From NCBI RefSeq assembly GCF_038066575.1, contig NZ_JBBUTF010000010.1, positions 12,435 through 44,434 on the forward strand: DNA of 32,000 bases. Reading direction: 5' to 3'. The notes beneath the pieces were generated by a model. That model made no database searches, was not told the DNA's origin, and saw nothing but the letters and a program-made list of their open reading frames with translations. This document shows positions 6,601 through 21,180 of this stretch, piece by piece (within the stretch, counting starts at the first letter, position 1; every line of letters begins with the position of its first letter). This DNA comes from Pseudaquabacterium rugosum (lineage in GTDB: Bacteria > Pseudomonadota > Gammaproteobacteria > Burkholderiales > Burkholderiaceae_C). Both the position numbers and the translations under genes were made by a program.

Positions 6601-6730
6601 GGAGCGCAACTGGTCCGCCAGCACCGGCCACCTCGATGCCGGCAACGACCGCGCCCCCAACGCCGCCATGGAGGCCGCGCTGCTGTTGCGCGCTGGCGAG
6701 GCGGTGCGCGCCCCTGCTGTGCGGCCTTGA
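3638..6730 (+). CDS. Fusion protein: N-terminal SEDS-family (FtsW/RodA) polytopic membrane glycosyltransferase plus C-terminal penicillin-binding transpeptidase-like domain
   Basis: 1030 aa. The N-terminal ~440 aa contain about 10 hydrophobic segments and SEDS signature stretches: DKGPLLVIALALVLLG, PTETQSDYTPAALG (cf. the TDFIFA motif) and LGNLGLLPLTGVPMPLLSWGRVAM (cf. G-lP-TG-plPf-SYGGS). The C-terminal part carries an SxxK motif (S677-T-L-K680, nt 5666-5677) and K913-T-G-T-S (nt 6374-6388), the acyl-serine transferase motifs 1 and 3. No clear SxN motif was seen. Confidence 0.7.
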   Translation: MPPTFAPPASVHTQRLAALSLCLCAALCALSVLWLDDWGRHGPSFARDYGRQQQITLAVAAALGLLLWLARDPLTLLCVRGLARWYALPAGRRWGLGALLSLGLVLAIGVLHWAHKLHAVPGLPASARPPLQWLSRQLVSTGLLPVRPAVTVELLRLPACTLVAWALYRWQHAQLSLGRNLLLAAVVLLVMALGLWASDDKGPLLVIALALVLLGAACVTRLLPPVLQSPGARWVAASLAATAGIAALLGLLPLLTPAGRMQAWHTPYSARQEYLAQITWFLQAAAHGHFGLGATPWCGHAGTLIGRCLGLPTETQSDYTPAALGLWGPVAAWAITAAVACWLLTLIRLAAWGTAPRHGVDTTGLAAATGGLYALMLLAQLFVTVLGNLGLLPLTGVPMPLLSWGRVAMVCTAVAVALVMPRPGSRSAIGGQSPLWRAVSGVATTACVMALVAVAYGLYQRLHDPAPQRLASGRTNPWAPLPGCVRSADGTPLQGLPGVPAVTQAVCLPASTGPTPVQAPASAPLLAPADDALRLALQQSADLAPLVQQRQHAGLRLPQRGDVTTTLHAPLQARADQLVACLTGQASPACQALVPATLAARYAQRLEGAAVRSVSLVTLRQRDGALLATAHGRSLCSAAQMANTPRPDGCAPEAQRRLARPGRLSQQALRADDMVASTLKLLLADALLNMPGGERWLSGAPKAQLLAALAASDTPFFIDHLLCFAPGGQPAHCAGPATLARRVAELQLAQGADLLPASPGEPEAPHLRLAGLPLTLPAWPPAGASAARELAAAQRCHALPHDQRWRGCSGEQLAALVAPLWGQGTARSHPLAVAQLYQRLAAAARGEARYVPPHLLAGTATAASTSQPTGFKPAHAALILEGLQRVPLVGTGRGACISVFGPHGCQDMGLAMKTGTSLFPQAGWTVAERAARCRAVFDHQDQRRAASQPLPAAAARDSLQCALYPMKWAVLLEPARPGGEALVTVVLVERNWSASTGHLDAGNDRAPNAAMEAALLLRAGEAVRAPAVRP

Positions 6731-6732
6731 CC

Positions 6733-6760
6733 GCCGGGGCCTGAACAAAAAAGGCCCGGC
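6733..6760 (+). promoter_or_regulatory. Intercistronic GC-rich hairpin with A-rich loop
   Basis: gccggggcc (6733-6741) pairs with ggcccggc (6753-6760), giving 8 bp with one bulged G, around the loop tgaacaaaaaa. It starts 3 nt after the SEDS-PBP stop. No T-run follows on either strand, so it is not a canonical intrinsic terminator. Confidence 0.35.
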
Positions 6761-6798
6761 CTGCGTAGGAACAGAAGAGGCAACCCCAGGACACCCCG

Positions 6799-8277
6799 AT
6801 GCACCCGCCACCCCACCTCGACAACGCCACCACCCGCCACCCACTGCCGGCCAACCCCACCCGCTGGCCCGCGCTGCACCTGGCGGTGCTGCAGGTCTGG
6901 CACGAGCACACCTCCCGGCGCGCCGGCCTGCAGCGCGCCGCCACGGCAGAGCTGCGGCTGGGGCCCGCCTGGGCCGACATCGCCCGGGCCAGCCCTGACC
7001 CGCAACGCCTGGCCCGGCGCCTGGCCGCCGACGGCGCCGACGTGCAGGTGCTGGTCATCCCCGACCTGCAGCAGCCTGAGCTGCACATCGGCTGGGCACC
7101 CTGGCATGCCCCGCCGCGGTCCCTCAGCCCCAGCCCCAACGCCGCACACCCCACCGCCACGGCAGACACGGCCACCACCGGCCTCCACGCCACCCCGCCC
7201 CGCCACCCTCACCACCCCGATCCGAGCACCCCCACCATGAAACTGCCCAACCTGCGCCAGCTCTTCACCCCCGAGCCCACCGCCACCGCGGCCCCCTTGC
7301 CCGAGCCCCGGCTGGAGCCCAGCGGCCAGCGAGCCGCACCCAGCGCCGCCCAGCAACTGACCCAGGCCCTGCAGCAGATCGCCGAGCAGATCGACGAGCA
7401 GGAACTGCGCATGCTGCTGGACACCGTGGACTGCCGCTACCAGCTGTGGGAGCTGACGCTGTACCTCACCCCCGGCAACCAGGCCCCGCTGCGCGGGCTG
7501 ATGGCCGCGCACCAGCAGAACCCGGCCATCGCGCGCCAGATCGTCGAGCGCGCCTTTGCCGGCACGCCCTGCGCCGGCCGCCTCAACACGCTGCGGCTGA
7601 AGCTGGACTTCAAGCGCGGCGACAGCCTGCCCCGCGAGGCCAGCGAGGTGCTGGTCGTCTGCGGCCGCGACAACGTCAGCCTGCCCTACACCTACACCGG
7701 TCAGCTGGAACTGGGCCAGGCAGCCCCCGCCCCGTCGGCCGCTCCCCCCCTCTCTGCCACGGGCACGGGCACGGCCAGCCCTGCCCCCCTCACCGCCGGC
7801 CCGCAAGGCACGCCCGAGCTGCTGCTGTGGGGCCAGGTGCCCGGCGCGGCCGGCACGCCCGCCGTACGGCGCTGGCGCCTGTCCAACGGCCCGGCCACCG
7901 TGGGCGCGGCCGACGAGGCCACCGTTCAGGCCAACCACCGGCACGTCAGCGGCGAACACCTGGTCTTGGCACTGGACGAGCAGGGCCAATGGACGGTGGA
8001 AGACCGCAGCCGCAACGGCAGTGCCCTGCTCGATGCCCTGGCCGGCGATGCCGAAAAGCCCTTGCCCTCGCGGCAGCCCCAGCGCCTGCCCGCCGCCGGC
8101 TGGCTGCGGCTGGGCCCGCTGCCCGACGACCCGGTGCTGAACTTCCACCTCGTGCTCTCGCCGGCTGCTGCGGCACCGGCTACCGCCGGCGGCAGCCGCC
8201 GCCGCGTCACCCAGTTGGCCGTTGCCGGCCACACCACCGCGCTGCCGCCCCTGGGCCGCGCCACGGACCTGACATGA
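6799..8277 (+). CDS. FHA-domain protein (FhaA-like architecture: N-terminal domain, Pro/Ala/Thr-rich linker, C-terminal FHA)
   Basis: 492 aa. The C-terminal FHA core is ATVGAADEATVQANHRHVSGEHLVLALDEQGQWTVEDRSRNGSALL (nt ~7890-8030), which contains the conserved G-R/A...S-x-x-H...N-G pattern. An alternative start is ATG 7237 (MKLPNLRQ). The stop overlaps the next gene start (ATGA at 8274-8277). Confidence 0.75.
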   Translation: MHPPPHLDNATTRHPLPANPTRWPALHLAVLQVWHEHTSRRAGLQRAATAELRLGPAWADIARASPDPQRLARRLAADGADVQVLVIPDLQQPELHIGWAPWHAPPRSLSPSPNAAHPTATADTATTGLHATPPRHPHHPDPSTPTMKLPNLRQLFTPEPTATAAPLPEPRLEPSGQRAAPSAAQQLTQALQQIAEQIDEQELRMLLDTVDCRYQLWELTLYLTPGNQAPLRGLMAAHQQNPAIARQIVERAFAGTPCAGRLNTLRLKLDFKRGDSLPREASEVLVVCGRDNVSLPYTYTGQLELGQAAPAPSAAPPLSATGTGTASPAPLTAGPQGTPELLLWGQVPGAAGTPAVRRWRLSNGPATVGAADEATVQANHRHVSGEHLVLALDEQGQWTVEDRSRNGSALLDALAGDAEKPLPSRQPQRLPAAGWLRLGPLPDDPVLNFHLVLSPAAAAPATAGGSRRRVTQLAVAGHTTALPPLGRATDLT

Positions 8278-9188
8278 GCTGGGCCGCACATCTGCTGGGC
8301 CTGTGGCGCGCCTGGTTCCGCCGCGGCCTGCGCAACGCCCCCCAGCCCCTGCCGGAGCCGGGCGGCGGCCAGGCCATGGCCCGGGGTGGCCCGTGGGCCG
8401 TGGCCTGGGCCAGCCACGCCGGCCCCCACCACCTCAACCAGGACTGCGCCGGCGCGTGCTGGCGCACGCTGCCTGACGGCACCGGCCTGGCCGCTGCCGT
8501 GGCCGACGGGGTCACCAACGGCGCGGCAGGCGATGTGGCGGCCCTGGCCCTGGTGCAGCACTGGCTGCAGGGGCCGCGGCCGCCGCAGCGTCAGCGCAGC
8601 TTCCTGGGCAATGCCGATGCTGCTGTGGCCAAGGCGCTGCGCAAACTCACCCAAGAGCCTGGCGCCGCCACCGGCGCGGCCTGCTGGCTGCAGCCCGACG
8701 GCAGCGGCTGGGCCACCCGCGTGGGCGACTGCCGGCTGCTGCGCGTGGTGCCGCCGCCCGCACAGGACGTCCCCCTGCTGCCCCCCGGCTGGTCCGTGCA
8801 ACCACTGCTGCACGACCAGACCTACGCCCACCTGCGCCGCAGCACTGGCGCCACACAGCCGCTGCTGGACGACGATGAGGACGCCCTGCAACCCGCCCAC
8901 ATGGTGGGCATTGGCTGCCTGGGCGAGCCCGAGTGGGTGCCGCTGGCGCTGGCCGAAGGCGATCTGCTGCTGCTGGCCTCCGATGGTCTGCACGCTGTCC
9001 TGTCGGATGCCGACTGGCACACCGTGCTGGCCCGGCACCTGGGCAGCGCCAACCCGGCGGCGGCTGCCCTGCCGGCGCTGCTGCACCATCTGATACAAAC
9101 CGCCATCGAGCGCGGCAGCGAGGACGACATCACCGTTCTGGCAATCCTGCGCCAGTCAGAACAGTACCGGGAGGAAGTTGAGCCGTGA
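8274..9188 (+). CDS. PP2C-family (PPM) Ser/Thr protein phosphatase
   Basis: Internal ATG of track ORF 7446-9188, overlapping the FHA gene stop by 4 nt. PPM motifs are AAVADGVTNGAAGDVAA, ATRVGDCRLL, LLLASDGLHAVLSD and GSEDDITVLAI. Confidence 0.8.
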   Translation: MSWAAHLLGLWRAWFRRGLRNAPQPLPEPGGGQAMARGGPWAVAWASHAGPHHLNQDCAGACWRTLPDGTGLAAAVADGVTNGAAGDVAALALVQHWLQGPRPPQRQRSFLGNADAAVAKALRKLTQEPGAATGAACWLQPDGSGWATRVGDCRLLRVVPPPAQDVPLLPPGWSVQPLLHDQTYAHLRRSTGATQPLLDDDEDALQPAHMVGIGCLGEPEWVPLALAEGDLLLLASDGLHAVLSDADWHTVLARHLGSANPAAAALPALLHHLIQTAIERGSEDDITVLAILRQSEQYREEVEP

Positions 9189-11338
9189 CCCGCCGCCGCA
9201 CATCCGTGATCGGAGGCGTGCATTCGCCTGCCAATCGTTCGCCCGCCCCCGCGGCCCTGCGCCAGTGGGCCCTGCTGGCCGTGCGCGAGCTGGTGCTCAG
9301 CCAGAGCCTGGACGCCGCCGAGGAGGCCCGCGCCTGGGAGGACACGGCCCGGCGCTGGCGCATCGCCAACGGGGACGAGGAGGGCAACCCCGCCCCCAGC
9401 GCTGACCGCAGCAAGGTCAAGCGCGAGCCGCCGCACAAAGGCGAGGTCTGGTGGCGCAAGGTCTACGAGCCCGAGTACGACGCCCTGCAGGTCAACGAGA
9501 CCGATGTGCTGAAGAAGCTGGCCGACATGGACCCTCAAGGACTGGCCGGCCTGCGCAACCACGTGGCCCATTTCGAGCAGAGCACCAAGGCAACGCGGCT
9601 GGCCTACCGCGCCGTGCGCACCAAGGACGCCGGCCCCAACCTGGACATGTGGCAAGTCTTTGCGCCCTGCACCAGCGTGGGCAACGCCGGGCTGCCGCTG
9701 CCACTGTTCGCCCAGCCGCGCTTTCTGGCGGCGCTCACCCGCCAGGCGCTGATCGCGCTGGACAAGCTCAGCCAGCTCGGCTTCGTGCACGTCGACGTCA
9801 AGCCCGGCAACCTGTGCCTGGCCTTTCCGCCAGGCAGCCACTGGCGCGCCGACCGCGACATCGCCCGTGGCCATTGGGACCTGCGGGCCTTGCCGTTGCG
9901 CCTGATCGACTTCGAACTTGGCTTTGCCCCCGGCGTCAACCGCCTTCCCCACGAAGGCGACAACGACAACTGGTCCCCCTACCTGCAGGCCTGCTTCCGC
10001 GAGGCGAAGAAAGAGCCGCAAGTGCGCATGCGCCTGCGGCGGCTGGACGGCATCGACTGGGGCACCGACCTGTGGGCCCTGGGCCACACGCTGCTGGTCT
10101 GGTGCAGCGAAGCGCAGAACTTCCTGCGTCAATTCAGCAACGCCATCGCCCTCCACTGGGGCGTGGATGGCCCGGCCCACCGCAGTGCGCAGGACACGGT
10201 CGGCCCCATGCAGACCGAGCTGGCCTTTCTGCGCAGCTTCGCCAAGGACCTGCAGGCCTGCGAACGCCCGCCCGCGGATGCGCAAGACGCCGACCCGACG
10301 GCGCGGGCGAACCCGCCCCACCGTAGCCTGTGGTCCCAGCTGGAAACCCGGTTCAAGCTCGGCCCCGGTGACAGTGCCAGCCGCGTCGAATTCCAGCTCA
10401 TCATCCCCACCCGCCCCCTCGCCGTCGCCGAAGGCAGCCGCTGGACCGACCTGGCCGCCCTGCGTGCCCGCACCGCCGCAGGCGCGGCCACGGCCTGGGC
10501 CCGCCGCCAGGGCCGGCCGCTGCAGGCCGCCGCCCGCACCACCACCGCCTGGGGCGCGCGCCACCACCGCCGCCTGCTGGCGGCCACGGCCGCCGGTGCG
10601 CTGGCCGTGGCCGCCGTGCAGGGCCGCGGCGCCCTGGCCGTGGCGCTGGCACCCACGGTGGGCCAGCTGGCCCGCGCCAGCCTGGCCGCCCAGGTGCGGG
10701 CCGACAGCCCCGTGCAGGCCACGCTGGCCCCCGCGCTGCTGCGCCTGGCCGGCGTGCTGGACGACGCTCTGCCTACCCGCGCCATCACTGCCGAGCTGGG
10801 TGCCACGCCGCAGCTGCCGCCCCGCGCCGCCGGCGCTGCGGCCGAGGCCGATGCTGCCACCCTTGCGGCGGTGCGCGAGGCCAACCTGCGCGCCCTGGCC
10901 CTGCTGGCCGATGCGCCCGATGCCGCCCTGCAGGCGCCCGAAGACGGCCGGGCGGACGGCCCGCCGCTGGGCCACCGCCTGCTGCGGCAGGCCTTGGAAA
11001 GTGGCCGGCAGTTGGAGGAACAGGCCGGCCGCGGCCACCCCCCCGCCCGCGGCCAACCCCCCGCCGCACCGGACGCCCGTGCCGCCGCCCTGGCCCGCCT
11101 GCACCAGCGCACCGCCTGGCCCATGGCGGAACTGCTGCAGGTGCACCTGAGCAGCTGCTACGGCGCGCCCCAGGGCCGCCAGCCCGACGCGCTGCGCCCG
11201 GCCCTGGCCAGCCTGCTGGCGCTGGACCGCAAGCAGGCGGTCAACCGCGAGTTCTACATCCCCTCGGCAGAGGTCTATGCCCAGCGCCTGGAGGCTGGCC
11301 AGGACCCCTGCTACCTGCCCGCCGCCACCCCGGGCTGA
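9185..11338 (+). CDS. Atypical Ser/Thr protein-kinase-like protein with long Ala-rich C-terminal region
   Basis: GTG start 9185 overlaps the PP2C stop (GTGA). Kinase-fold landmarks are a beta3 Lys candidate (VWWRKVYEP), an alphaC Glu (NETDVLKKL), the catalytic loop H202-V-D-V-K-P-G-N209 (nt 9788-9811) and D242-F-E in place of DFG (nt 9908-9916). There is no GxGxxG loop, and an extra ~20 aa lies between the catalytic loop and DFE. Residues ~380-717 are Ala/Arg/Pro-rich with a possible hydrophobic segment (LLAATAAGALAVAAV). Confidence 0.65.
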   Translation: MTRRRTSVIGGVHSPANRSPAPAALRQWALLAVRELVLSQSLDAAEEARAWEDTARRWRIANGDEEGNPAPSADRSKVKREPPHKGEVWWRKVYEPEYDALQVNETDVLKKLADMDPQGLAGLRNHVAHFEQSTKATRLAYRAVRTKDAGPNLDMWQVFAPCTSVGNAGLPLPLFAQPRFLAALTRQALIALDKLSQLGFVHVDVKPGNLCLAFPPGSHWRADRDIARGHWDLRALPLRLIDFELGFAPGVNRLPHEGDNDNWSPYLQACFREAKKEPQVRMRLRRLDGIDWGTDLWALGHTLLVWCSEAQNFLRQFSNAIALHWGVDGPAHRSAQDTVGPMQTELAFLRSFAKDLQACERPPADAQDADPTARANPPHRSLWSQLETRFKLGPGDSASRVEFQLIIPTRPLAVAEGSRWTDLAALRARTAAGAATAWARRQGRPLQAAARTTTAWGARHHRRLLAATAAGALAVAAVQGRGALAVALAPTVGQLARASLAAQVRADSPVQATLAPALLRLAGVLDDALPTRAITAELGATPQLPPRAAGAAAEADAATLAAVREANLRALALLADAPDAALQAPEDGRADGPPLGHRLLRQALESGRQLEEQAGRGHPPARGQPPAAPDARAAALARLHQRTAWPMAELLQVHLSSCYGAPQGRQPDALRPALASLLALDRKQAVNREFYIPSAEVYAQRLEAGQDPCYLPAATPG

Positions 11339-11377
11339 CGCCCCACCGCCTGCCCACCCCCGCACCGGAGTCCCCCC

Positions 11378-12877
11378 ATGCCGCCCCGGCCTGTTGCCCC
11401 CCCTTCCCACCCGGCGCCGCTGCCTGCCCGCCCTGCCGCCCTGACCCTGGCCTTGCTGCTGGCCCTGGCGGCCTGGCCCGGGCTGCCTGCCCGCGCACAG
11501 GCCATCAGCGCCCCGCCCCTGGGCTACCCCACGCCGGCCGAGCTGGCCGAGGCCCGGAAGGAAGCCGCCCAGCTGCGCGAGGCCCTGGGCCGCGAACAAG
11601 CCAAGGCCAAGGCCGCCCAGCAGGCCGCCGATGCCGCCAACGCCCGCGCCACCCAGGCCGAGCGCGCCGCCGCTGCGGCCGAAGTCCAGTCCGGCAAGGC
11701 CAACCCCGAGCAACTGGCCGCCCTGCGCCTGGAGCGCGACGCAGCCCGGGCCGAGGCCGCCAGCCTGCGCACCGAGCTGGCCCAGGCCAACGAGGCCGTC
11801 AAGCGCCTGAAGGCTGCGGCGAGCGATGCCGGCGCCAGCACCGCCGAGCTGACCCGGCTGCGCCGCCAGAGCCAGGAGCAACAGGACACCATCACCACCC
11901 TGCGCACCCAGCTGGCAGCCGAGAAAAAGGCCACGGCCAGCGCCAACGCCGCGGCATCGGCTGCTGCTGCCAGTGCCGCGGCGGCAGCCGCCGCCACCCG
12001 CCAGCCCCCAGCCCCGGTGGCCAGAACCACGGCCCCGCAGCCCGCACCATCCACCACCACGACCACCGCCCCCCTGCCGCCCGACCTGAGCGACATCACC
12101 GTACCCGGCTGCGGCGCGGCCTGCCCCACCTTCGTGCTCATCCCCAACCCCGGCCCGGTGACGCTGGGCACGGGCAGCGATGCGCTGCGCATCGACTTCA
12201 AGCACCGCTACGCCATGGCCAGCACCGAAACCACGGTCGGCCAGTGGAAGGCCTTCATCAACGACAGCGGCTACCGGCCGGAGAAAGCCAGCGACACCTA
12301 CTGCAACTGGGACGACAAGGCCTATTCCAGCGACGACAAGCTGCCCGTGGCCTGCGTCAACGTCACCGATGCCGAGGCCTACGCCGCCTGGTTTGCCCGC
12401 AAGTACGCCGGCCAGATGCGGGCCCAGGGCCAGGCCAACGGTGCGCCGTTGCGCATCGACAGCATCGGGCTACCCAGCGAGTTGGAGTGGGAGTTTGCCG
12501 CTCGTGGCGGGCGTTACACCGAAAAGTACCTGTGGGACGACGGCGCCAGCGATGCGGAGACCTGCCGGCATGGGCAGAACTACAAATGCCACGGCGGGGC
12601 CAAGCCCGTCGGCGAGCGGCTGAAGAACGGCTACCGCCTCCACGACATGATCGGCAACGTCTGGGAATGGACGGCCTCGCCCTGGCGTGACCAACGCAGT
12701 GCGCTGCCGCTGCATGGCCGCGAGGCGCCCGCCGGGGTGTCCGGCCCGCGCTCTGTGCGCGGGGCCTCTTTCGTCAACTTCGACGTCAGGCTCGCCCTGT
12801 CCTACCGCCTCTGGTACACCCCCGGCGACCGCTACAGCTACATCGGTTTCCGTTTGGTCGCCCGGATCGCGCCATGA
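11378..12877 (+). CDS. DGR variable (target) protein: signal peptide, coiled-coil stalk, Ala/Thr/Pro linker and FGE-sulfatase/C-type-lectin-fold domain with C-terminal VR
   Basis: 499 aa. It has a Sec signal (LTLALLLALAAWPGLPARAQA/IS), and residues ~50-190 are heptad-like and charged/Ala-rich (coiled coil). FGE-sulfatase family motifs are ETTVGQWKAFI, PVACVNVTDAEAYAAWF, LPSELEWEFAARGG, GNVWEWT and VRGASF...IGFRLVAR. The last ~45 codons match the TR downstream of the RT. Confidence 0.9.
   Translation: MPPRPVAPPSHPAPLPARPAALTLALLLALAAWPGLPARAQAISAPPLGYPTPAELAEARKEAAQLREALGREQAKAKAAQQAADAANARATQAERAAAAAEVQSGKANPEQLAALRLERDAARAEAASLRTELAQANEAVKRLKAAASDAGASTAELTRLRRQSQEQQDTITTLRTQLAAEKKATASANAAASAAAASAAAAAAATRQPPAPVARTTAPQPAPSTTTTTAPLPPDLSDITVPGCGAACPTFVLIPNPGPVTLGTGSDALRIDFKHRYAMASTETTVGQWKAFINDSGYRPEKASDTYCNWDDKAYSSDDKLPVACVNVTDAEAYAAWFARKYAGQMRAQGQANGAPLRIDSIGLPSELEWEFAARGGRYTEKYLWDDGASDAETCRHGQNYKCHGGAKPVGERLKNGYRLHDMIGNVWEWTASPWRDQRSALPLHGREAPAGVSGPRSVRGASFVNFDVRLALSYRLWYTPGDRYSYIGFRLVARIAP
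12731..12868 (+). repeat. DGR variable repeat (VR)
   Basis: This 138-nt segment aligns without gaps to 14682-14819 (offset 1951). All 14 internal substitutions in codons 12773-12841 lie opposite TR adenines. There is one boundary A/G difference and one non-A difference (12754 T vs 14705 G). The 3' 23 nt (12842-12864) are identical to the TR, after which the sequences diverge (IMH-like end). Confidence 0.9.
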
Positions 12878-12887
12878 CCATGGCGCG
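12868..12887 (+). promoter_or_regulatory. GC-rich hairpin/cruciform at the VR 3' boundary (candidate DGR target-recognition element)
   Basis: cgcgccat (12868-12875) pairs perfectly with atggcgcg (12880-12887) around the 4-nt loop gacc. The element spans the target stop codon (12875-12877). No equivalent palindrome follows the TR. Confidence 0.6.
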
Positions 12888-13091
12888 TGACCCCTTGATG
12901 CCTTTACCCCCTTACGCCAAACGTCAGTGCACCGCACACACGCGGATGCGCCGCAGGCCGGTGTCGGGGGTGCGGGGGCGGCAGCCCCCGCCGCGCGACG
13001 CCGCGCGCGCGCGCACGGCGGCCGGTCCAGCACCAGCGGCGTCGCCGATGGCGCGGGGCTTCCCACGGTCCATCGCCGGCGCGCAGATCCA

Positions 13092-13508
13092 ATGACCATG
13101 CATCCACCCGTCCCACCATCGTCCACCTCCAACCGGGTGCCGACGCCCGCAGACCCGCCAGGGGCCCGCGGCGGACAGGCCTTGGAACGGACCGTGCTCT
13201 ACATCACCTGGCTGGTGCCGGTGCTGGAGCAGTTCCCGCGCAGCCAGCGTTTCCTGCTGGGCGACCGTCTGCAAAGCCTGGCGCTGGACCTGATGGACGT
13301 GCTGGTGGAGGCCCAGTACCGCAAGTCCCCTCGCGCCGAGTTGCAGCGCGCCAATCTGCTGCTGGAAAAGCAGCGCCTGTTGTGGCGGGTGGCCTACAAC
13401 CTGCGTCTGGCCGACGTGCGCCGCTACGAGCATGCGGCCCGCGAGATCGACGACATCGGCCGCCGCCTGGGCGCCTGGCTCAAGCGGCTGGGACCGAGCA
13501 CTGCATGA
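13092..13508 (+). CDS. avd: Avd-like accessory variability determinant (four-helix-bundle, 23S rRNA IVS protein family)
   Basis: 138 aa from ATG 13092 of track ORF 12927-13508. It has the characteristic LYITWLVPVLEQFPRSQRFLLGDRLQSLALDLMDVLVEAQY helix pair and a basic C-terminal helix (IDDIGRRLGAWLKRL). The stop overlaps the RT start (ATGA 13505-13508). Confidence 0.8.
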   Translation: MTMHPPVPPSSTSNRVPTPADPPGARGGQALERTVLYITWLVPVLEQFPRSQRFLLGDRLQSLALDLMDVLVEAQYRKSPRAELQRANLLLEKQRLLWRVAYNLRLADVRRYEHAAREIDDIGRRLGAWLKRLGPSTA

Positions 13509-14611
13509 GACGCCGCCCCGCCGCCGACCTGTTCGACCAGGTGGCCAGCTTCCCCGCGCTGCTCGCCGCCACCCGACGCGCGGCCCAGGGCAAGCGCGAA
13601 CGCCCCGATGCCGCGGCCTTTCTGTTCCGCCTGGAACCGAACCTGCTGCGCCTGAGTGATGCGCTCTACAGCGGCCAGTGGCAGCCTGGCGGCTACCGCA
13701 AGGTGATGGTGCGCGAGCCCAAGACACGCCACATTTCCATCGCCCCCTTCGCAGACCGCGTGGTCCACCAGGCTCTGCACGGCGTACTGGGCCCCCTCAC
13801 GCAGCGCAGCTTCATCAGCGATAGCTTCGCCAGCCTGCCTGGGCGCGGGCAGCACCGGGCCATCGCCCGCTATGAACAGTTCCGCGACACACACCCCTGG
13901 GTGCTGCGCTGTGACATCCACCGCTTCTTCCCTTCCATCGACCATGCCGTGGCCAAGCACGAGGTGCGCCGCTGGGTGGCCTGCCCACGCACCCTGGCCG
14001 TGGTGGACGCGATCATCGACGGCAGCAATCCTCAAGAGCCGGTGAATGCCTACTTTCCGGGCGACGACCTGTTCACCCCCTGGGAGCGACGCCGTGGCTT
14101 GCCGCTGGGCAACCTGACCAGCCAGTGGCTGGCCAATCTCGTGCTGAACCCGCTGGACCATTGGGTCAAGGAGGTGCTGCGCCTGCCTGGCTATCTGCGT
14201 TACCTGGACGACTTCGCGCTGTTCTGCCACAGCGCGGACGAGGCCCTGGACCTGCAACGTCAGGTCCAGGGCTTTCTGGACCGACGGCGCCTGCGGCTGC
14301 ACCCCATCAAGACGCAGGCCCTGTGCACCTGCCATCCAGCGACGTTTCTGGGCCTGGAACTGTGGCCGGATCGCCACCGGCGCCTGCCGCAGGCCAATGT
14401 GTCCCGGGCTGCCGAACGGGTACGCCGGGCCCGGCTGGACTGGACGCGAGGCCTGCGGGACGAAGCCGAGGTGCGTCGTACCGTGGCGGCTTGGGTGGCG
14501 CATGCCCGTCATGCCGACACCTTCTTGCTGCGACGGCGCTGGTTCAGTGCAGGCTGGTTCGACCCGGAAGGCGAAACTCGTCGAGCGCGCACCAGGCCAC
14601 GGCCACGCTGA
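13505..14611 (+). CDS. DGR-type reverse transcriptase
   Basis: 368 aa from ATG 13505 of track ORF 13382-14611. RT motifs are KTRHISIAPFADRVVHQAL and LPLGNLTSQWLANLVLNPLDH (the SQ-containing motif typical of DGR RTs), plus catalytic YLRYLDDFALF (YxDD). There is no endonuclease, maturase or RNase H extension. Confidence 0.9.
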   Translation: MRRRPAADLFDQVASFPALLAATRRAAQGKRERPDAAAFLFRLEPNLLRLSDALYSGQWQPGGYRKVMVREPKTRHISIAPFADRVVHQALHGVLGPLTQRSFISDSFASLPGRGQHRAIARYEQFRDTHPWVLRCDIHRFFPSIDHAVAKHEVRRWVACPRTLAVVDAIIDGSNPQEPVNAYFPGDDLFTPWERRRGLPLGNLTSQWLANLVLNPLDHWVKEVLRLPGYLRYLDDFALFCHSADEALDLQRQVQGFLDRRRLRLHPIKTQALCTCHPATFLGLELWPDRHRRLPQANVSRAAERVRRARLDWTRGLRDEAEVRRTVAAWVAHARHADTFLLRRRWFSAGWFDPEGETRRARTRPRPR

Positions 14612-14681
14612 CAACTGCCGCTAGACTGCTTCGCGCCATCAGCCGCAACCGCGACGCGATGGTGCCCGCCCGACCTTCCAG

Positions 14682-14819
14682 ACCGGGGTGTCCGGCCCGC
14701 GCTCGGTGCGCGGGGCCTCTTTCAACAACAACGACGACAGGCTCGCCCTGTCCAACCGCAACAGGAACACCCCCGGCAACCGCAACAACAACATCGGTTT
14801 CCGTTTGGTCGCCCGCATC
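14682..14819 (+). repeat. DGR template repeat (TR)
   Basis: This invariant-copy candidate lies 70 nt downstream of the RT stop. It is adenine-rich for this genome (28 A in 138 nt). In the VR reading frame it contains 10 AAC, 2 GAC and 2 AGG codons. See the VR entry for the alignment. Confidence 0.9.
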
Positions 14820-14928
14820 CCCCACCCGGCCGGAGCAGCGCAGCCCAAGGGCTGTGCTGGCGTGCCGTGCGGGGTATCCAGGTCGGTGCCGGCATGCTTC
14901 GGGGCCTGCCGCCTTGGTCTTCGGTCTT

Positions 14929-14961
14929 GCGGCCGTTGGCGGCGGTGGGGCCCGCTTTTTT
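14929..14961 (+). terminator. Candidate intrinsic terminator / 3' end of the avd-RT-TR transcript
   Basis: An imperfect stem gcggcc (14929-14934) / ggcccgc (14949-14955), with one bulge and a 14-nt loop, is followed by the only T6 run in this part of the window (14956-14961). The stem is weak. Confidence 0.3.
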
Positions 14962-15017
14962 CATGGTCAGCACCAAACGCCAGACCGCACGCCTTCACAC
15001 CACCCACTGGATCCGCC

Positions 15018-15908
15018 ATGAAGTCGAACACCCGTTCCGTCCTTCGCCCCTCAGCACCTCGCCAGCGCTGGCTGGAACTTGATGGGCTGGCCCAGCAGTA
15101 CCTGGCCCTGCCCGTGGAGGACAGCGTCGAGCGCGAGGCGCTGCGCCTGCGCATCCTGCGCTTGCTGGCGGCCGGCTGGGTCAGCTTCACGGCCGACGGC
15201 ACATCCACGCGAGAAGACGATGTGCTGTCGCGTACCTTTCGCGAACAGGCAGCGGCCCTGAGTCGTCGCCATGCCAATCACAGCCTGGAGCACATCTACG
15301 GCGGCTTGGACAACCTGGGTGACGAGGCCAAGGCCGAGTTCCTGGCACGCCGTGCCAGCAAGGCCGGCCACGCCGGCCAGACGCTGCTGACCGGCCTGCT
15401 CAGCCAGTGGAACCCGGCCAAGAGCGACTTGCGCGGCTTCATGCAGGCGGTGGTGCGCAACTTCCTGCTGGACCTGCACCGCAAGGCATACAAGCGGGAA
15501 GACGGCCTGAACGGCGCGCCGCCGGGCGCCACGCCACGGGGCTTCCTGACCGACGGGCGAGCACCGGGCGACGAGGGCGACGCCGACGGCAGCACCGGCC
15601 ACGACGACTGGCTGGAGGCCGTGACCCATGCCCACGGCGTGGACGGTTCCCCCCACAGCGCCGAGGACGAGGCCGCGCAGACGGAGGAACTGTTCCAGGC
15701 TCTGGAGGCCGCCCGCGACGCCCTGCCCCCGCAGCAGCGCAGCACGTACGACAGTGAAATCGAGCGCCACAGCGGCCCGAGGACGACCGACGCGGCACAG
15801 GCGGCTGCCGCGGGCATCAGCCGCAACACGCTGTACAAGCGCCGGGCAGAACTGGCGGCGGCCTTGAACAAGCTGATGCACAACACGGCGACGGCACCCA
15901 AGAGCTGA
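15018..15908 (+). CDS. Divergent sigma-70 family (ECF-like) RNA polymerase sigma factor candidate
   Basis: 296 aa from the first ATG downstream of the TR in track ORF 14688-15908. It has a region-2-like stretch LRGFMQAVVRNFLLDLHRKAYKRE and a region-4-like HTH at the C-terminus (LPPQQRSTYD...TTDAAQAAAAGISRNTLYKRRAELAAALNKL), separated by an acidic insert. The assignment comes from motif pattern only. Confidence 0.5.
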   Translation: MKSNTRSVLRPSAPRQRWLELDGLAQQYLALPVEDSVEREALRLRILRLLAAGWVSFTADGTSTREDDVLSRTFREQAAALSRRHANHSLEHIYGGLDNLGDEAKAEFLARRASKAGHAGQTLLTGLLSQWNPAKSDLRGFMQAVVRNFLLDLHRKAYKREDGLNGAPPGATPRGFLTDGRAPGDEGDADGSTGHDDWLEAVTHAHGVDGSPHSAEDEAAQTEELFQALEAARDALPPQQRSTYDSEIERHSGPRTTDAAQAAAAGISRNTLYKRRAELAAALNKLMHNTATAPKS

Positions 15909-16053
15909 AGCGACAGCGAAAAGCTCAGATGGCGGATAGACGTCCGAGCGCATCCTGGACCGGATGACGGCATGCGGACGCTGTCCGTCCCCGCACGCTC
16001 CATGTCCGCCCCCGCACTGGCGCCGAAGGCCCGGCACGGCCAGCATCGGCCCC

Positions 16054-16782
16054 ATGCCCACCGCGTCATCCACCCCCCCGCCCCGCCCGCTCACCTTCAC
16101 CCTGCTGGCCTACGACGGCGTCGAGCTGCTCGACCTGACCGGCCCCTGCGAGGTCTTCACCACCGCCGCACGCGTGGCCGCCCGGCCGGATGGCGCGCGG
16201 CTGCCCGGCGCGGCCATCGCCGCGGGCTGGCAGGTGCGCACCGTGTCGCGCGATGGCGCGGCCGTCCGCAGCCGCGCGGGCCTGCGCCTGCTGCCGGACG
16301 GGGGCTTCGACGATGCCAGACCGGCACTCTCGGCACCCGCAGCTTCCGTGGCGCCCGAGGTGTGCGAAGCGCCCGCCCCGCCCGCCACCCCAACCGACAT
16401 CCTGCTGATCCCCGGCGGCGTCACCGATGCGGCCGAGGCCTGCCCCGCCACCCGCGCCTGGCTGCAGCGCCAGGCGCCCGCCGCTCAGGTGCTGGCGGCG
16501 GTGTGCACCGGCAGCTTCATCCTGGCGGCCGCCGGGCTGCTGCAGGGCCCGCGGCGTGTGACCACGCATCCGGAGGATCTGGCGCCGATGCGCGCGCGCT
16601 GGCCGCAGCTGCAGGTGCTGGACGGACCGCGCTGGGTGGTGGACGATCGGCTCTGGACGTCGGCCGGCATCAGTGCCGGCATCGACCTGTCGCTGGCGCT
16701 GGTCGCGCATCTGGCCAGCCCGGCGCTGGCCGAGCGCACGGCGCGCCAGATGGACTACCGATGGATCAGCCAGCCCGAGTGA
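16054..16782 (+). CDS. DJ-1/PfpI family (class I glutamine amidotransferase-like) protein
   Basis: Internal ATG 16054 of track ORF 15964-16782. Motifs are FTLLAYDGVELLDLTGPCEVF, ILLIPGG, the nucleophile elbow AVCTGSFILAAAGLL and TSAGISAGIDLSLALV. Confidence 0.8.
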   Translation: MPTASSTPPPRPLTFTLLAYDGVELLDLTGPCEVFTTAARVAARPDGARLPGAAIAAGWQVRTVSRDGAAVRSRAGLRLLPDGGFDDARPALSAPAASVAPEVCEAPAPPATPTDILLIPGGVTDAAEACPATRAWLQRQAPAAQVLAAVCTGSFILAAAGLLQGPRRVTTHPEDLAPMRARWPQLQVLDGPRWVVDDRLWTSAGISAGIDLSLALVAHLASPALAERTARQMDYRWISQPE

Positions 16783-17864
16783 CACGCCAGACACGCCCGA
16801 CACGACCGACCCGTCCGCACGCGCGGCAGACCGAGCCTGCAACGCCCGGCCCCGCGCCGGTCGATGTCCACATCGTGCTGCTCGACGACCATGTGCTGCT
16901 GGACTGGGCCGGCCCGGCCGAGGTGCTGCGGGTGGCGCGGCGGCTGCTGGAGGCGCGCGGCCTGGGCCCGGTGTTCACGCTGCACTGCGTGGGGCCGCGG
17001 CCGCAGGCGCGCAGCTCGGTCGGTGCGGTGATCGCGGATCTGGCGCCGCTGCCGGATCTGGTGCAGGCCGCGGCCGGTGGCCGTCGGCAATGGCTGATGC
17101 TGGTCGGCCAGACGGGCGCGCGCATCGCGCTCGACAGCGCGCCCGCACGCGAGCTGCTGCGCTGGCTGCGCCCGCTGCCGCTGCGCGCCGGCCACATCGA
17201 GCTGCTGTGCGTGTGTGCGGGGGCGGTGATCGCCGGCCATGCCGGCCTGCTGGACGGCCGCGCGGCCACCACCCACCACGATCATCTGGACGAGCTGCGC
17301 GCCGCCGCACCCGCCGCGCAGGTGCTGGACAACCGCGTCTTCGTGCTCGACGGGCCGGTGGCCAGCAGCGCGGGCGTGTCCACCGGCATCGACCTGATGC
17401 TGCATGCGGTCAGTGCTCATCTGGGGCCGGTGGCGGGCCCGCCGCTGGCCGCCGAGATCGCGCAGCAGCTGGTGCTGGCGCTGCGCCGTGGGCCGCAGGA
17501 TGCGGAGCTGTCGCCCTTCATCGCCCACCGCCAGCATCTGCAGCCGCTGCTGCACCGGGTGCAGGATGCGGTGGCGCGTGATCCGCGGGCGGCCTGGACG
17601 CTGGAGACCATGGCCGCGCGGGCGCCCACCTCCACGCGGCATCTGCGGCGGCTGTTCCGGCAGCACGCCGGCCTGGCGCCGATGGCCTGGCTGCTGCAGC
17701 TGCGCCTGGCGCTGGCCCGGGCCGCGCTGCGGTCCGGGCACGGCGTGGGCCGCGCGGCGGAGCTGGCCGGCTTCTCCTCGGATGCGCAGTTGCGACGGGC
17801 GTGGCAGCGGGCGGGGCTGGCGGGCACGCCGTCGTCGGTGCGGCCCGAGGCCGGGCCGCGGTGA
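16761..17864 (+). CDS. GlxA-family transcriptional regulator (DJ-1/PfpI-like N-domain plus AraC/XylS HTH)
   Basis: This is the 3' part of track ORF 15972-17864; the 5' part runs out of frame over the previous gene. Motifs are VHIVLLDDHVLLDWAGPAEVL, CVCAGAVIAGHAGLLDGRAATTHH and SSAGVSTGIDLMLH, with a C-terminal AraC HTH (TLETMAARAPTSTRHLRRLFRQHAGLAPMAWLLQLRLALARAAL...AELAGFSSDAQLRRAW). An alternative GTG start at 16779 overlaps the upstream stop (GTGA). Confidence 0.8.
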   Translation: MDQPARVTRQTRPTRPTRPHARQTEPATPGPAPVDVHIVLLDDHVLLDWAGPAEVLRVARRLLEARGLGPVFTLHCVGPRPQARSSVGAVIADLAPLPDLVQAAAGGRRQWLMLVGQTGARIALDSAPARELLRWLRPLPLRAGHIELLCVCAGAVIAGHAGLLDGRAATTHHDHLDELRAAAPAAQVLDNRVFVLDGPVASSAGVSTGIDLMLHAVSAHLGPVAGPPLAAEIAQQLVLALRRGPQDAELSPFIAHRQHLQPLLHRVQDAVARDPRAAWTLETMAARAPTSTRHLRRLFRQHAGLAPMAWLLQLRLALARAALRSGHGVGRAAELAGFSSDAQLRRAWQRAGLAGTPSSVRPEAGPR

Positions 17865-17910: not shown

Positions 17911-18543
17911 TCAGGCCCGCAACGCGCGGCGGCGGGCCGCGCCACCCACCACGCCCAGGCCGAGGGCCAGCAGCGCAGCCGATGCCGGCTCGGGCACGGC
18001 GGCGGCGGTGGTCGTCCACGCCCAGTCCGCGGTGCTGTTATGGATGTCGTAGGTGGTCGGCAGCGGCGTGCCGCCGACCCACAGGAAGGTGTAGCCGGAC
18101 CAGCGCCAGCCCGTCGCGTTGCCGCTGAGCACGCCCAGCCCCGGCGCACCGAGGCCGCCCACCGGATCGCCCCAGATGAGCTTGAAGTCGTCGAGGCCGG
18201 CCAGCGAGGCCGTGGTGCTGTGGAAGTAGGACTTCTCGCCGTTCAAGGGCACCTGATCGGACAGCCTGACGAAGCTGTTCGGGCCGGTGTAGCTGAAGTC
18301 GAAGGCCGCGCTGGCGACGGCTTCGTAGCCGCCCGTGTCGGCCACGTCCCACGTCAGGTCGCTGAAGGTCAGCGTGGCCGTGACGGAAGCCGGGGCCGTG
18401 CCATCGGCCGCGCCGATGCAGCGGGCATTGATGCAGGTGCCGGTGAAGGTGAGCACCGTGTCGTCGGCCCAGGCCGGTGCCTGCAGGCCGGCAGCGGCCA
18501 CCAGCACCCCAAGCACACGGCGGACATACCGCTGGTCGTTCAT
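17911..18543 (-). CDS. PEP-CTERM sorting-domain secreted protein
   Basis: Internal ATG 18543 is preceded by GGAGAG. It has a signal peptide (RRVLGVLVAAAGLQAPAWA) and a C-terminal VPEPASAALLALGLGVVGGAARRR motif, i.e. the PEP motif, a TM helix and a basic tail. Confidence 0.8.
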   Translation of the reverse strand: MNDQRYVRRVLGVLVAAAGLQAPAWADDTVLTFTGTCINARCIGAADGTAPASVTATLTFSDLTWDVADTGGYEAVASAAFDFSYTGPNSFVRLSDQVPLNGEKSYFHSTTASLAGLDDFKLIWGDPVGGLGAPGLGVLSGNATGWRWSGYTFLWVGGTPLPTTYDIHNSTADWAWTTTAAAVPEPASAALLALGLGVVGGAARRRALRA

Positions 18544-18746
18544 GATCTCTCCCTGTTGCTCTCTGGTCAGCCAAAGATCATAAGGAGCCGGACTTCGCCG
18601 CAAGCCCGGCCGTTACGCGCGGTCACCAATGGCGCGGGCGCCTCCTCCAACGGGGTGATGAACGACGTGACGGCGGGACCCTCAGGCCGTCCGGCAGCGC
18701 GGTTCGTGCGACCGCGTGCGGCGCATCCAGAAACGGACGCAGCGCC

Positions 18747-20972: not shown

Positions 20973-21180
20973 GGTCCGTCACCTCCGCGGCGCAGCATAG
21001 GCGGGCGGACCGACCGGCACAACCGCCGGCCGGCCGGCCCGTCCATCGCCCGTGGGTCGGCGGCCCGCGGGGCCTGGCGCGTGGCGGTCCGCGCAAGCCG
21101 GTACCGATCGACGACCGGGGCGTACGGGCCGGTGCCGGCCCCACGCCCTATCGTCAGGGCCCCCGACCGAGGAGACACCG

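Follow-up and report, generated by a model that had tools for sequence, protein, structure and literature searches.

The betaproteobacterium Pseudaquabacterium rugosum very probably carries on its chromosome a complete diversity-generating retroelement (DGR) of the avd-RT-TR type, with a lectin that may act as the sensor of a signalling module. All parts of the element are present and intact (Table 1): a target gene ending in a variable repeat (VR), the accessory gene avd, a reverse transcriptase (RT) gene, and a template repeat (TR). The initial annotation had proposed a complete chromosomal DGR within the 32-kb stretch of contig analyzed here (the window). Every defining component was recovered, and the term chromosomal is reasonable because the surroundings are non-phage and housekeeping in character.

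Table 1. Coordinates of the DGR, its associated elements, and the neighbouring genes in the window.
Feature	Position	Strand	Basis or remark
SEDS-like (FtsW/RodA) membrane protein, 1040 aa	3608..6730	+	Pfam FTSW_RODA_SPOVE, 28.2 bits vs 26.4; weak similarity
FHA-domain protein	6769..8277	+	Pfam FHA, 23.6 bits vs cut-off 20.7
PP2C-type Ser/Thr phosphatase	8295..9188	+	Pfam SpoIIE and PP2C_2
Divergent Hanks-type Ser/Thr kinase	9185..11338	+	AF2 and Foldseek; directly upstream of target
DGR target gene, 499 aa	11378..12877	+	Pfam PF03781, E = 3e-40
VR (variable repeat)	12731..12868	+	Final ~45 codons of target; gap-free TR alignment
IMH-like VR 3' end	12840..12872	+	GC-rich GGTCGCCCGG, without A-to-N changes
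GC-rich inverted repeat (hairpin/cruciform)	12868..12887	+	Directly 3' of VR, spans stop codon
Pyrimidine-rich tandem motif ACCCCTTGATGCCTTTACCCCCTTACGCC	12890..12918	+	Downstream of VR
Second GC hairpin GCGGGGGC-GGCA-GCCCCCGC	12972..12991	+	Target-avd spacer
avd (accessory variability determinant), 138 aa	13092..13508	+	NCBIfam NF033474 DivGenRetAVD
DGR reverse transcriptase, 368 aa	13505..14611	+	Pfam RVT_1, E = 5e-19
TR (template repeat)	14682..14819	+	27 adenines, 10 AAC codons, non-coding
Structured RNA region, Sp-spacer analogue	14820..14962	+	RNAalifold, terminator scan
Conserved CCGGAGC	14830-14836	+	Within post-TR RNA
P1 hairpin	14836-14859	+	Within post-TR RNA
Conserved GGGGTATCCAGG	14871-14882	+	Within post-TR RNA
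Long terminal hairpin, then T6	~14901-14962	+	Intrinsic-terminator-like; terminator scan
Divergent ECF-like sigma-70 family protein, 296 aa	15018..15908	+	Directly downstream of TR and terminator; weak match

A repeat search and alignment over the window paired VR positions 12732-12868 with TR positions 14683-14819, gap-free over 137 nt at an offset of 1951, as expected from the repeat pair described earlier; the position preceding the repeat is likewise G on the VR side (12731) and A on the TR side (14682). With this boundary position counted separately, 14 of the 16 internal mismatches fell on TR adenines, which make up 27 of the 137 TR bases (hypergeometric P = 4e-10). All 14 adenine-linked differences were present, with exactly the codon pairs previously listed, but the statement that every internal difference lies at a TR adenine was incorrect: two others occur in the same span, at 12754 (T in the VR, G in the TR; TCT/TCG, synonymous for Ser) and at 12865 (G in the VR, C in the TR). 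The mismatch at 12754 shows either some drift since the last homogenization or homing tracts that end short of this position. Substitutions at TR adenines were 10 A-to-T, 3 A-to-G, and 1 A-to-C, and 14 of the 27 adenines (52%) had changed; both this proportion and the dominance of T match the values for bRT-Avd, for which ~52% misincorporation and a preference for dATP have been measured (PMC7826257). At least one retrohoming event in the past has left its adenine-specific footprint on the VR.

At present the VR differs from the TR-encoded peptide at 11 residues. The codon count agreed with the earlier description of a TR with 10 AAC codons, where no adenine substitution can yield a stop codon. 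The accompanying figure of 15^10 peptide variants is arithmetically sound but too low as a repertoire, as the A-containing codons number 17 in all and jointly allow ~5e15 possible peptides. A suggested scan for additional VRs was run on the window, and none matching the TR was found elsewhere in it. An open reading frame overlapping the TR was rejected as spurious; the NCBI start of the downstream gene is 15018.

Between the repeats, the gene previously described as Avd-type scored 89 bits with the NCBIfam equivalog model, whose cut-off is 80 (Pfam bAvd E = 1e-13), and its product is 76-88% identical to those of four related loci (L009, L010, L092, L093). Its stop codon overlaps the RT start codon in the sequence ATGA (13505-13508), the coupling that had been pointed out. 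Identification of the RT as DGR-type also held: the motifs LGNLTSQ (14105-14125) and YLDD (14201-14212) were located, the equivalent of bRT R74 is intact within EPKTRHIS (13715-13738), and the best PDB match was the Bordetella phage bRT (8ub7; E = 1e-32, 117 bits), compared with 4e-21 and 79 bits for the best group II RT. LGNLTSQ conforms to the [I/V/L]GxxxSQ signature of DGRs rather than to the group II counterpart QGxxxSP (PMC7826257). Among NCBIfam models, the RT best matched a group II intron model (115 bits, far under the cut-off of 300), and no DGR-RT model was among its matches.

These NCBIfam results (group II, Drt3a, and retron models, all under cut-off), together with an in-frame translation of the TR that reads as an FGE-sulfatase C-terminus, could be taken to mean that the TR is a decaying duplicate of the target 3' end lying beside an unrelated RT, whether a retron, a group II remnant, or a defence RT. 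That reading is effectively refuted already, and we give it almost no credence: the mismatches are biased to adenines, the Avd passes its equivalog cut-off and shows translational coupling with the RT, the RT has bRT as its best solved homologue and carries the DGR-specific SQ motif, and in dozens of relatives an RT and a TR arranged in the same way go with mismatches at A only.

A DGR is the reading we retain, and almost every RT relative at 38-58% identity has its own adenine-biased TR/VR pair. The order target-avd-RT-TR had been singled out as departing from the Bordetella prototype, which it does; it is not unusual, since Wu et al. 2018 (PMC5758913) list it as architecture B2 and most of the RT clade shares it, with the TR just downstream of the RT in 43 of 51 relatives. 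The DGR is genuine yet architecturally ordinary, with all canonical parts in a published order. The nearest annotated RTs are cyanobacterial, from cellular or plasmid DGRs (42-44% identity), and one of them adjoins an annotated Avd gene. DGRs were first found in phage, and RT homologues do occur in 142 phage records. Both facts favour the rival view of a phage or prophage element whose target would be a receptor-binding protein, diversified like that of BPP-1 to switch tropism. We consider it highly improbable, as the phage RTs are only 31-36% identical, phage, integrase, and structural genes are absent across the window, the target combines a signal peptide with an FGE-sulfatase domain and does not have an Mtd or tail-fibre architecture, and the flanking kinase, PP2C, FHA, and sigma genes are co-conserved in other genomes.

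The target is 100% identical to a 499-aa NCBI 'formylglycine-generating enzyme family protein' of Pseudaquabacterium rugosum, and the VR occupies the end of its reading frame, in frame, as had been reported. A signal-peptide-like hydrophobic segment (aa 19-38) is followed by an Ala/Glu/Lys/Gln-rich region (~aa 50-200, coiled-coil-like on visual inspection of the sequence), a Pro/Thr/Ala linker, and a C-terminal FGE-sulfatase/C-type-lectin domain (aa 270-494). This domain bears out the proposed C-type-lectin target, as do PDB matches to PvdO (1e-10) and, across the VR-bearing end (aa 362-496), to Treponema TvpA (2y3c; 2e-9).

The TR counterpart of the IMH-like VR end is IMH*-like (14791-14823), and the VR copy departs from it at 12865 and from 12869 onward. 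The G/C difference at 12865 (GCCCGG in the VR, GCCCGC in the TR) recurs in L002, L009, and L010, and L004 has it at the matching place in the variant GCCAGG/GCCAGC; it is an IMH/IMH*-type marker (defined in PMC5758913). The hairpin that follows the VR has an 8-bp stem (CGCGCCAT/ATGGCGCG) and a 4-nt loop (GACC). In DNA folding of 12840-12910 (z = -2.96), none of 200 shuffles was equally stable. The hairpin appears in L010 as GCGCCAT-GAAA-ATGGCGC and in L009, with a compensatory change, as GCGCCGT-AAA-ACGGCG. Post-VR hairpins have been described for BPP-1 and other DGRs, and in BPP-1 the loop sequence matters (PMC3240598); the GACC loop is off the GRNA consensus at its last base. The ACCCCTTGATGCCTTTACCCCCTTACGCC motif is kept 3' of VRs in distant relatives and was absent 3' of TRs in the relatives compared. 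The second GC hairpin, kept in L009, L010, L004, and many metagenome loci, often with a T-run next to it there, probably serves to terminate or attenuate transcription of the target gene.

Downstream of the TR, RNAalifold on eight loci found compensatory changes at 10 of the 12 pairs of P1. In five close relatives 46 pairs were predicted, including a helix linking the TR 3' end to downstream sequence, and the terminal T-run is also found in L001 and L009. A promoter scan, a weak one at 73% G+C, found no sigma-70-type promoter.

If the Bordetella phage paradigm applies, events would proceed as follows: the avd-RT-TR unit would be transcribed as far as the terminator near 14962; the RT-Avd complex would bind the TR RNA plus its structured 3' extension; cDNA would be synthesized with unfaithful copying of template adenines; and this cDNA would replace the VR at the 3' end of the target gene. 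Replacement may be guided by the IMH-like end and the adjacent hairpin, and the outcome would be the rewriting of up to 17 codons, without stop codons, on the ligand-binding face of the C-type-lectin (FGE-sulfatase-fold) domain.

The DGR cassette lies between the lectin gene and the ECF-like sigma gene of a six-gene module (SEDS-like, FHA, PP2C, Hanks-type kinase, lectin, sigma-like) that is syntenic in at least five other loci (L009, L010, L092, L093, L091). The SEDS-like and PP2C products matched NCBIfam ftsW (1e-10) and Stp1_PP2C (2.6e-11), each under cut-off. The kinase (706 aa by NCBI, with an Ala-rich C-terminal half) had no match in a Pfam search. An AF2 model of its aa 1-420 (pLDDT 86.7) returned 1401 PDB matches in Foldseek at E <= 1e-3, the top ones all protein kinases; 26 homologues share residues K92, E105, H202, D204, K206, N209, D242, and E244 without exception, and some homologues (P0018-P0025) are fused to an FGE-sulfatase domain. 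The sigma-like protein is labelled 'Sigma-70 family RNA polymerase sigma factor' in UniRef and matched NCBIfam sigma70-ECF under cut-off (E = 1e-3). Foldseek matches to its AF2 model (pLDDT 66) were weak (E ~1e-2), the top ones nearly all sigma factors, with TM 0.70-0.74 for the sigma-4 domain. Its gene follows the TR in L001, L009, L010, and L092, and is also kept in L093 and L091. The synteny and the kinase/lectin fusions in relatives point to a signalling role for the target: the diversified, probably exported lectin may be a variable ligand sensor, with the adjacent kinase, PP2C, FHA, SEDS-like, and ECF-like sigma proteins as its likely partners.

From its sequence, the element is probably still active. 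Neither the avd nor the RT frame is broken, and every catalytic and signature residue is kept; only one true drift mutation is seen in 137 nt; the TR is still stop-free and AAC-rich, a design that would decay without selection; and the IMH marker, hairpin, post-TR RNA structure, and terminator are conserved relative to L001, L009, L010, and L092. A fossil cassette, which once mutagenized the VR and has since ceased to work, leaving the VR fixed, is unlikely, though of appreciable probability. It would accommodate the synonymous mismatch within the repeat and the off-consensus hairpin loop. In L093 the RT ends prematurely at aa 243 and no TR was detected, and L091 has the whole signalling module but no DGR; DGR loss within the module therefore does occur. 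The collections searched held neither a second copy of the locus nor population data for it, which the fossil reading would also tolerate.

The BPP-1 DGR (mtd-avd-TR-brt) has in common with that of P. rugosum the adenine-specific TR-to-VR footprint, an Avd and an RT with [I/V/L]GxxxSQ and YxDD, a C-type-lectin-fold target whose C-terminus holds the VR, asymmetry between IMH and IMH*, and, 3' of the VR, a GC hairpin (8-bp stem, 4-nt loop). In BPP-1, however, the TR lies between avd and RT; in P. rugosum it is downstream of the RT, so that the 3' end of the RT gene forms the RNA segment ahead of the TR. The context here is cellular rather than phage, the target an FGE-sulfatase-type lectin with a signal peptide rather than a tail-fibre tip, and the hairpin loop GACC rather than GAAA. 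Category 'b' targets (FGE-sulfatase, CLec1 VR) form the largest category, 19% of DGRs (Wu et al. 2018, PMC5758913). With them and architecture B2 the locus shares the avd-RT-TR order with an upstream target, and an FGE-sulfatase protein with a C-terminal VR, for which Treponema denticola TvpA is the structural exemplar. It departs from that survey in its host, a newly named species (Sphaerotilaceae), in the long coiled-coil-like N-terminal region of the target, and in its signalling-module neighbours, which the survey does not mention.

Cyanobacterial DGRs diversify Ser/Thr-kinase::CLec proteins (Vallota-Eastman et al. 2020, PMC7517822), and the 'Proteo1' STK family has a C-terminal FGE-sulfatase domain (bioRxiv 10.1101/2025.01.12.632604). 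As in P. rugosum, these systems pair a Hanks-type kinase with a lectin domain of the DGR type; the cyanobacterial affinity of the RT is a further likeness, and P0018-P0025 join the same kinase-like and FGE-sulfatase domains. Unlike those proteins, the kinase and lectin of P. rugosum are encoded by separate adjacent genes, the lectin with its own signal peptide; the module adds PP2C, FHA, SEDS-like, and ECF-like sigma genes, and the DGR cassette is inserted between lectin and sigma genes. Hanks-type kinases activate sigma factors in Vibrio (EcfP/PknT) and Xanthomonas (EcfK/PknS) (PMC8999054, PMC13147305). There too the kinase is encoded with a non-canonical ECF-like sigma factor (an assignment that is weak in P. 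rugosum) and an anti-sigma factor is not obvious, but neither a DGR nor a lectin is part of those systems, and the parallel is an analogy only. The one notable feature of the P. rugosum cassette is its position inside a conserved kinase/phosphatase/sigma-factor cluster, which suggests a 'reprogrammable sensor'.

The element is a real diversity-generating retroelement (DGR) of a well-known kind, with architecture B2 and a category b target. The initial annotation was correct in this reading, but overlooked two mismatches at sites other than adenine and overestimated the novelty of the element. A repeat search of 10000-17000 returned a single outstanding direct repeat, 12732-12868 against 14683-14819 (137 nt, 88% identical), and position-by-position comparison aligned the two copies without gaps over 137-138 nt at a fixed offset of 1951 nt. 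Homology between the variable repeat (VR) and the template repeat (TR) sets in at 12732 and decays beyond 12868; the position that flanks the repeat on the 5' side has G in the VR copy (12731) and A in the TR copy (14682), as previously described. Also as described, the VR lies in frame within the coding sequence 11378-12877 and spans its last ~45 codons, and the TR/VR codon pairs listed earlier were exact. The statement that all internal differences fall on a TR adenine holds for only 14 of the 16; the others are at 12754 (T in VR, G in TR), where the change is synonymous (TCT/TCG, Ser), and at 12865 (G in VR, C in TR). Given 27 A in the 137 nt of the TR, the hypergeometric probability of at least 14 of 16 mismatches on A is 4e-10, and a chance repeat or decaying gene fragment was rejected on this adenine bias.

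The VR differs from the TR at 14 of 27 adenines (52%), with 10 A-to-T, three A-to-G, and one A-to-C change. The reverse transcriptase (RT) of the Bordetella phage element (bRT), acting with Avd in vitro, misincorporates at ~52% of template adenines and prefers dATP, which yields A-to-T on the coding strand (PMC7826257); the footprint in the VR matches both this rate and this preference. Selection on the target protein, in favor of Tyr, Phe, Trp, Leu, and Val, may also have contributed. The A-containing codons of the TR (10 AAC, two GAC, two AGG, one ACC, and two ATC) are typical of DGR design. The codon count bore out the ten AAC codons claimed earlier and the lack of any stop codon reachable by A substitution; the theoretical repertoire is ~5e15 peptides. 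A scan for additional VRs covered both strands of the whole window, where no further sequence fit the TR at its non-A positions.

Features of the DGR and its neighborhood (window coordinates)
Feature	Position	Strand	Description
SEDS-like membrane protein	upstream of target	+	1040 aa; weak SEDS (FtsW/RodA) similarity
FHA-domain protein	upstream of target	+	Pfam FHA
PP2C phosphatase	upstream of target	+	Pfam match; NCBIfam match below cut-off
Kinase-like protein	9185-11338	+	717 aa; 'hypothetical' at NCBI; no Pfam/NCBIfam match
Target gene	11378-12877	+	499 aa; Pfam FGE-sulfatase PF03781, E = 3e-40, aa 270-494
Post-VR hairpin	12868-12887	+	8-bp GC-rich stem CGCGCCAT-GACC-ATGGCGCG, 4-nt loop, directly at VR end
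Pyrimidine-rich motif	12890-12918	+	tandem 8-9-nt units just 3' of VR
avd	13092-13508	+	138 aa; NCBIfam NF033474 equivalog 'diversity-generating retroelement protein Avd', 89 bits (cut-off 80)
RT	13505-14611	+	368 aa; ATGA overlap with avd
TR	14682-14819	+	from alignment to VR
Sigma-like protein	15018-15908	+	296 aa; 3' of TR terminator

The Avd accessory protein occurs in most DGRs, not all. Its presence here was confirmed by a curated model scoring above cut-off and by the ATGA coupling of its gene to the RT. The best PDB homologue of the RT was 8ub7, a 328-aa 'Reverse transcriptase' chain (E = 1e-32, 117 bits) that we take to be Bordetella phage bRT; the next matches were the group II RT GsI-IIC (4e-21, 79 bits) and then retron-type RTs. 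The LGNLTSQ and YLDD motifs reported earlier are present and the YLDD is intact, which marks the predicted protein as a DGR-type RT: where group II and retroviral RTs have QGxxxSP, DGR RTs carry the signature [I/V/L]GxxxSQ (PMC7826257). Arg and Leu occupy the positions equivalent to R74 and I181 of bRT, the residue pair shown to favor mutagenesis at adenines (PMC7826257). Identity as a group II intron, retron, or DRT enzyme was rejected, as the curated NCBIfam models for these families all scored far under their cut-offs (group_II_RT_mat 115 of 300, Drt3a 48 of 200, and Retron St85 38 of 235 bits).

The VR sits in the C-terminus of a protein-coding target of the FGE-sulfatase/C-type-lectin type, and the Treponema DGR variable protein TvpA (2y3c) aligned to target aa 362-496. 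A protein of Pseudaquabacterium rugosum at NCBI is identical to the target and is annotated just as 'formylglycine-generating enzyme family protein'. In human FGE, the two catalytic cysteines lie in the C-terminal segment; the translated target has no cysteine in its last ~80 residues. The target protein is best read as a probable binding scaffold rather than a catalytic FGE, and TvpA was likewise concluded to be a binding scaffold (PMC5758913).

A-to-N changes are absent beyond 12839, and the GC-rich 3' end of the VR (GGTCGCCCGG) differs from that of the TR (GGTCGCCCGC), a difference kept in relatives. The substitution at 12865 (GCCCGG in the VR, GCCCGC in the TR) was found again at the same position in three related loci (L002, L009, and L010), and a fourth (L004) carries the variant GCCAGG/GCCAGC at the equivalent place. 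Differences of this kind between the 3' end elements of the VR (IMH) and the TR (IMH*) separate recipient from donor in DGRs (PMC5758913), and the mismatch at 12865 is to be read, from sequence comparison, as one of them and not as drift.

The hairpin that follows the VR was more stable as folded DNA than chance would predict, as none of 200 shuffled sequences was equally stable. Close relatives have one too, with compensatory change (GCGCCAT-GAAA-ATGGCGC in L010 and GCGCCGT-AAA-ACGGCG in L009). In the Bordetella phage prototype BPP-1, Guo et al. found a hairpin/cruciform to be required for efficient homing; a GC-rich inverted repeat with a GRNA loop follows the VR in about a third of DGRs, with stems of 7-10 bp, loops of 4 nt, and a distance of 4-34 bp from the VR (PMC3240598). 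The loop here, GACC, differs from the GRNA consensus at its last base.

Beyond the hairpin lies an element for which we found no description in the DGR literature examined. Nearly every VR in the RT clade, second and remote VRs included, is followed by two to four pyrimidine-rich units in tandem, each 8-9 nt long. The units read CCTTTACC or CCCTTTACC in some loci and CCCTTTTGCC in others, and take the form TTCTGA in the group whose TR precedes the RT. Besides the window, they were seen in L002-L006, L010, L012, L013, L019, L021, L022, L057, L065, L070, L072-L074, and other related loci. Under a strict pattern, at least two units were present in 17 of 53 VR tails versus none of 53 TR tails, and in the RT clade loci compared they never occurred 3' of a TR; mean pyrimidine content over the first 60 nt was 65% after VRs versus 47% after TRs. 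The units may serve to recognize the target, or may instead be a signal for transcription or translation; in loci that lack the classical hairpin, CCTTTACC or CCCTTTTGCC may be involved in target recognition.

The sequence 3' of the TR is non-coding, as the next gene begins at 15018 in the NCBI annotation, yet it is conserved. It contains, in order, a CCGGAGC box, a hairpin at 14836-14859, a conserved GGGGTATCCAGG, and a long terminal hairpin with T6 (~14901-14962) that a terminator scan also detected. Compensatory changes affected 10 of the 12 pairs of the 14836-14859 hairpin across eight loci from different phyla; the structure is conserved and covarying, and a terminator follows. In position and size, this ~140-nt region resembles the Sp spacer RNA of BPP-1, which is structured and needed for priming, and by analogy it may be the equivalent of Sp. 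Rfam, searched at permissive E-values over 11000-16000, yielded no known RNA family, only a chance miRNA match, and a scan of 11000-16200 for sigma-70 promoters returned none, although such a scan is uninformative at 73% G+C. A long open frame (14625-15908) runs from the TR directly into the sigma-like gene and shares its reading frame; gene finders could fuse the TR-encoded pseudo-lectin tail to the sigma-like protein, and the frame gave a spurious weak FGE-sulfatase match.

The core order of avd, RT, and TR on one strand is the architecture defined as B2 by Wu et al. (2018), in whose survey FGE-sulfatase/CLec1 targets form the largest target category (PMC5758913). An RT scan of GTDB genomes and metagenomes recovered 88 loci at 38-75% identity; 51 of them yielded adenine-biased pairs to a purpose-made TR/VR finder, and in 43 of these 51 the TR lies just 3' of the RT. 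Given this definition and these relatives, the order target-avd-RT-TR, set apart from the Bordetella phage prototype in the initial annotation, is standard for the clade. The closest annotated RTs are cyanobacterial, at 42-44% identity, and lie on plasmid records; an annotated Avd gene adjoins one of them. A phage-borne DGR was rejected: phage DGR RTs are only 31-36% identical to the window RT, and no phage or integrase genes were found in the window, the remainder of which encodes housekeeping enzymes and regulators. Downstream lie a DJ-1/PfpI-family protein followed by an overlapping-frame DJ-1/PfpI and AraC-type HTH regulator (15964-17864), and, on the minus strand, a PEP-CTERM protein (17911-18612) and a protein of 743 aa whose C-terminus resembles nucleoside 2-deoxyribosyltransferase (18747-20978); these genes have no apparent link to the DGR.

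Exact look-up placed the RT and target proteins on no other contig of the searched assemblies, and neither a match nor a near-identical copy emerged from metagenomes scanned with a VR pattern that had N in place of each TR adenine; the nearest target homologue is 62% identical. We considered whether the element is a fossil DGR, no longer diversifying its target. The synonymous mismatch at 12754 and the off-consensus hairpin loop are mild arguments for this, set against intact reading frames and motifs, conserved cis elements, and a TR still built on AAC codons, all of which argue for a functional element; we regard a fossil as unlikely. Two relatives show RTs that look interrupted. In the close relative L009 (12025-12700; ENA BUSI22-1 scaffold_1546), the RT seems to break off at aa 159 and to run on into the 3' half of the TR; real truncation was rejected in favor of a probable assembly artefact of the VR/TR repeat, because the junction adjoins a scaffold gap of 100 N with the same 55 nt on either side, and the L009 break is given no weight here. 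In L093, the RT is truncated at aa 243 and a search for the TR was unsuccessful; here the truncation may be genuine decay.

Four same-strand genes are closely packed upstream of the target (3608-11338). Pfam and PDB sequence searches gave little for the kinase-like and sigma-like proteins, and their assignment needed structure prediction and Foldseek. Residues 1-420 of the kinase-like protein were modeled by AF2 with a protein-kinase fold (pLDDT 86.7); Foldseek returned 1401 PDB matches at E <= 1e-3, the top ones all kinases, and none of the catalytic residues (Lys, Glu, HxDxKxxN, and DFx) varies among 26 homologues. We read the protein as a divergent kinase of the Hanks type. The C-terminal half (aa ~440-717) is Ala-rich, with a borderline hydrophobic segment near aa 470-500 that, by our own estimate, fell below the segment threshold used. 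The sigma-like model was poorer (pLDDT 66): Foldseek gave no match at E <= 1e-3, and its weak matches were almost only sigma factors, mostly of the ECF type, with the sigma-4 domain matching at TM 0.70-0.74. A sub-threshold NCBIfam ECF match and the UniRef name agree with the model, and weakly suggest that the 296-aa protein is an ECF-like sigma factor.

The same six-gene order (SEDS-like, FHA, PP2C, kinase, lectin, sigma-like) recurs in four related loci (L009, L010, L092, and L093), with the DGR cassette likewise between the lectin and sigma genes and targets 48-57% identical to that of the window. Another locus, L091, carries the module with two kinase::FGE-sulfatase fusion paralogues and no DGR. 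Across such fusion proteins (P0018-P0025), the N-terminal halves align to the kinase and the C-terminal halves to the target. Conserved order and fusion together are good evidence that kinase and lectin act together. Similar pairings have been noted, as STK::CLec DGR targets in cyanobacteria (PMC7517822) and as a family of proteobacterial STKs that carry FGE-sulfatase at the C-terminus (bioRxiv 10.1101/2025.01.12.632604), and there are precedents for sigma factors activated by Hanks-type kinases (PMC8999054, PMC13147305). Small toxin-antitoxin genes (ParE-like, HicB-like, MqsR/MqsA, DUF433/DUF5615) lie amid the DGR parts or beside the module in several relatives (L010, 11688-13582; L091, 17812-18515; L093, 11026-12747); none of these kinds was found in the window.

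Our working model is that an exported lectin, diversified by the DGR, would feed a kinase/PP2C/FHA-to-sigma pathway. The cassette would then be a plug-in for a betaproteobacterial signaling module, with the lectin as its reprogrammable ligand sensor and with Ser/Thr phosphorylation and sigma-dependent transcription as the output. This proposal, together with that of a clade-specific pyrimidine cis element after the VR, is tentative, and we hold it as possible rather than probable. As a DGR, the element adds little, because thousands have been catalogued and no architecture or target class is commoner than its own. What makes it useful in practice is that it is cellular, compact, and intact, and that its host, P. 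rugosum, is a named species. The signaling neighborhood and the conserved cis elements set it slightly apart from a routine DGR; a conserved kinase/phosphatase/FHA/sigma-like operon surrounds the target, kinase and lectin are fused in relatives, and comparison among loci indicates that an RNA 3' of the TR and a motif 3' of the VR are conserved. The candidate signaling partners encoded beside the target offer a direct route to asking what chromosomal, non-phage DGRs do and whether they tune signal perception. If the proposal is true, P. rugosum, which can be cultured, would possess an adaptive receptor linked to the control of gene expression.
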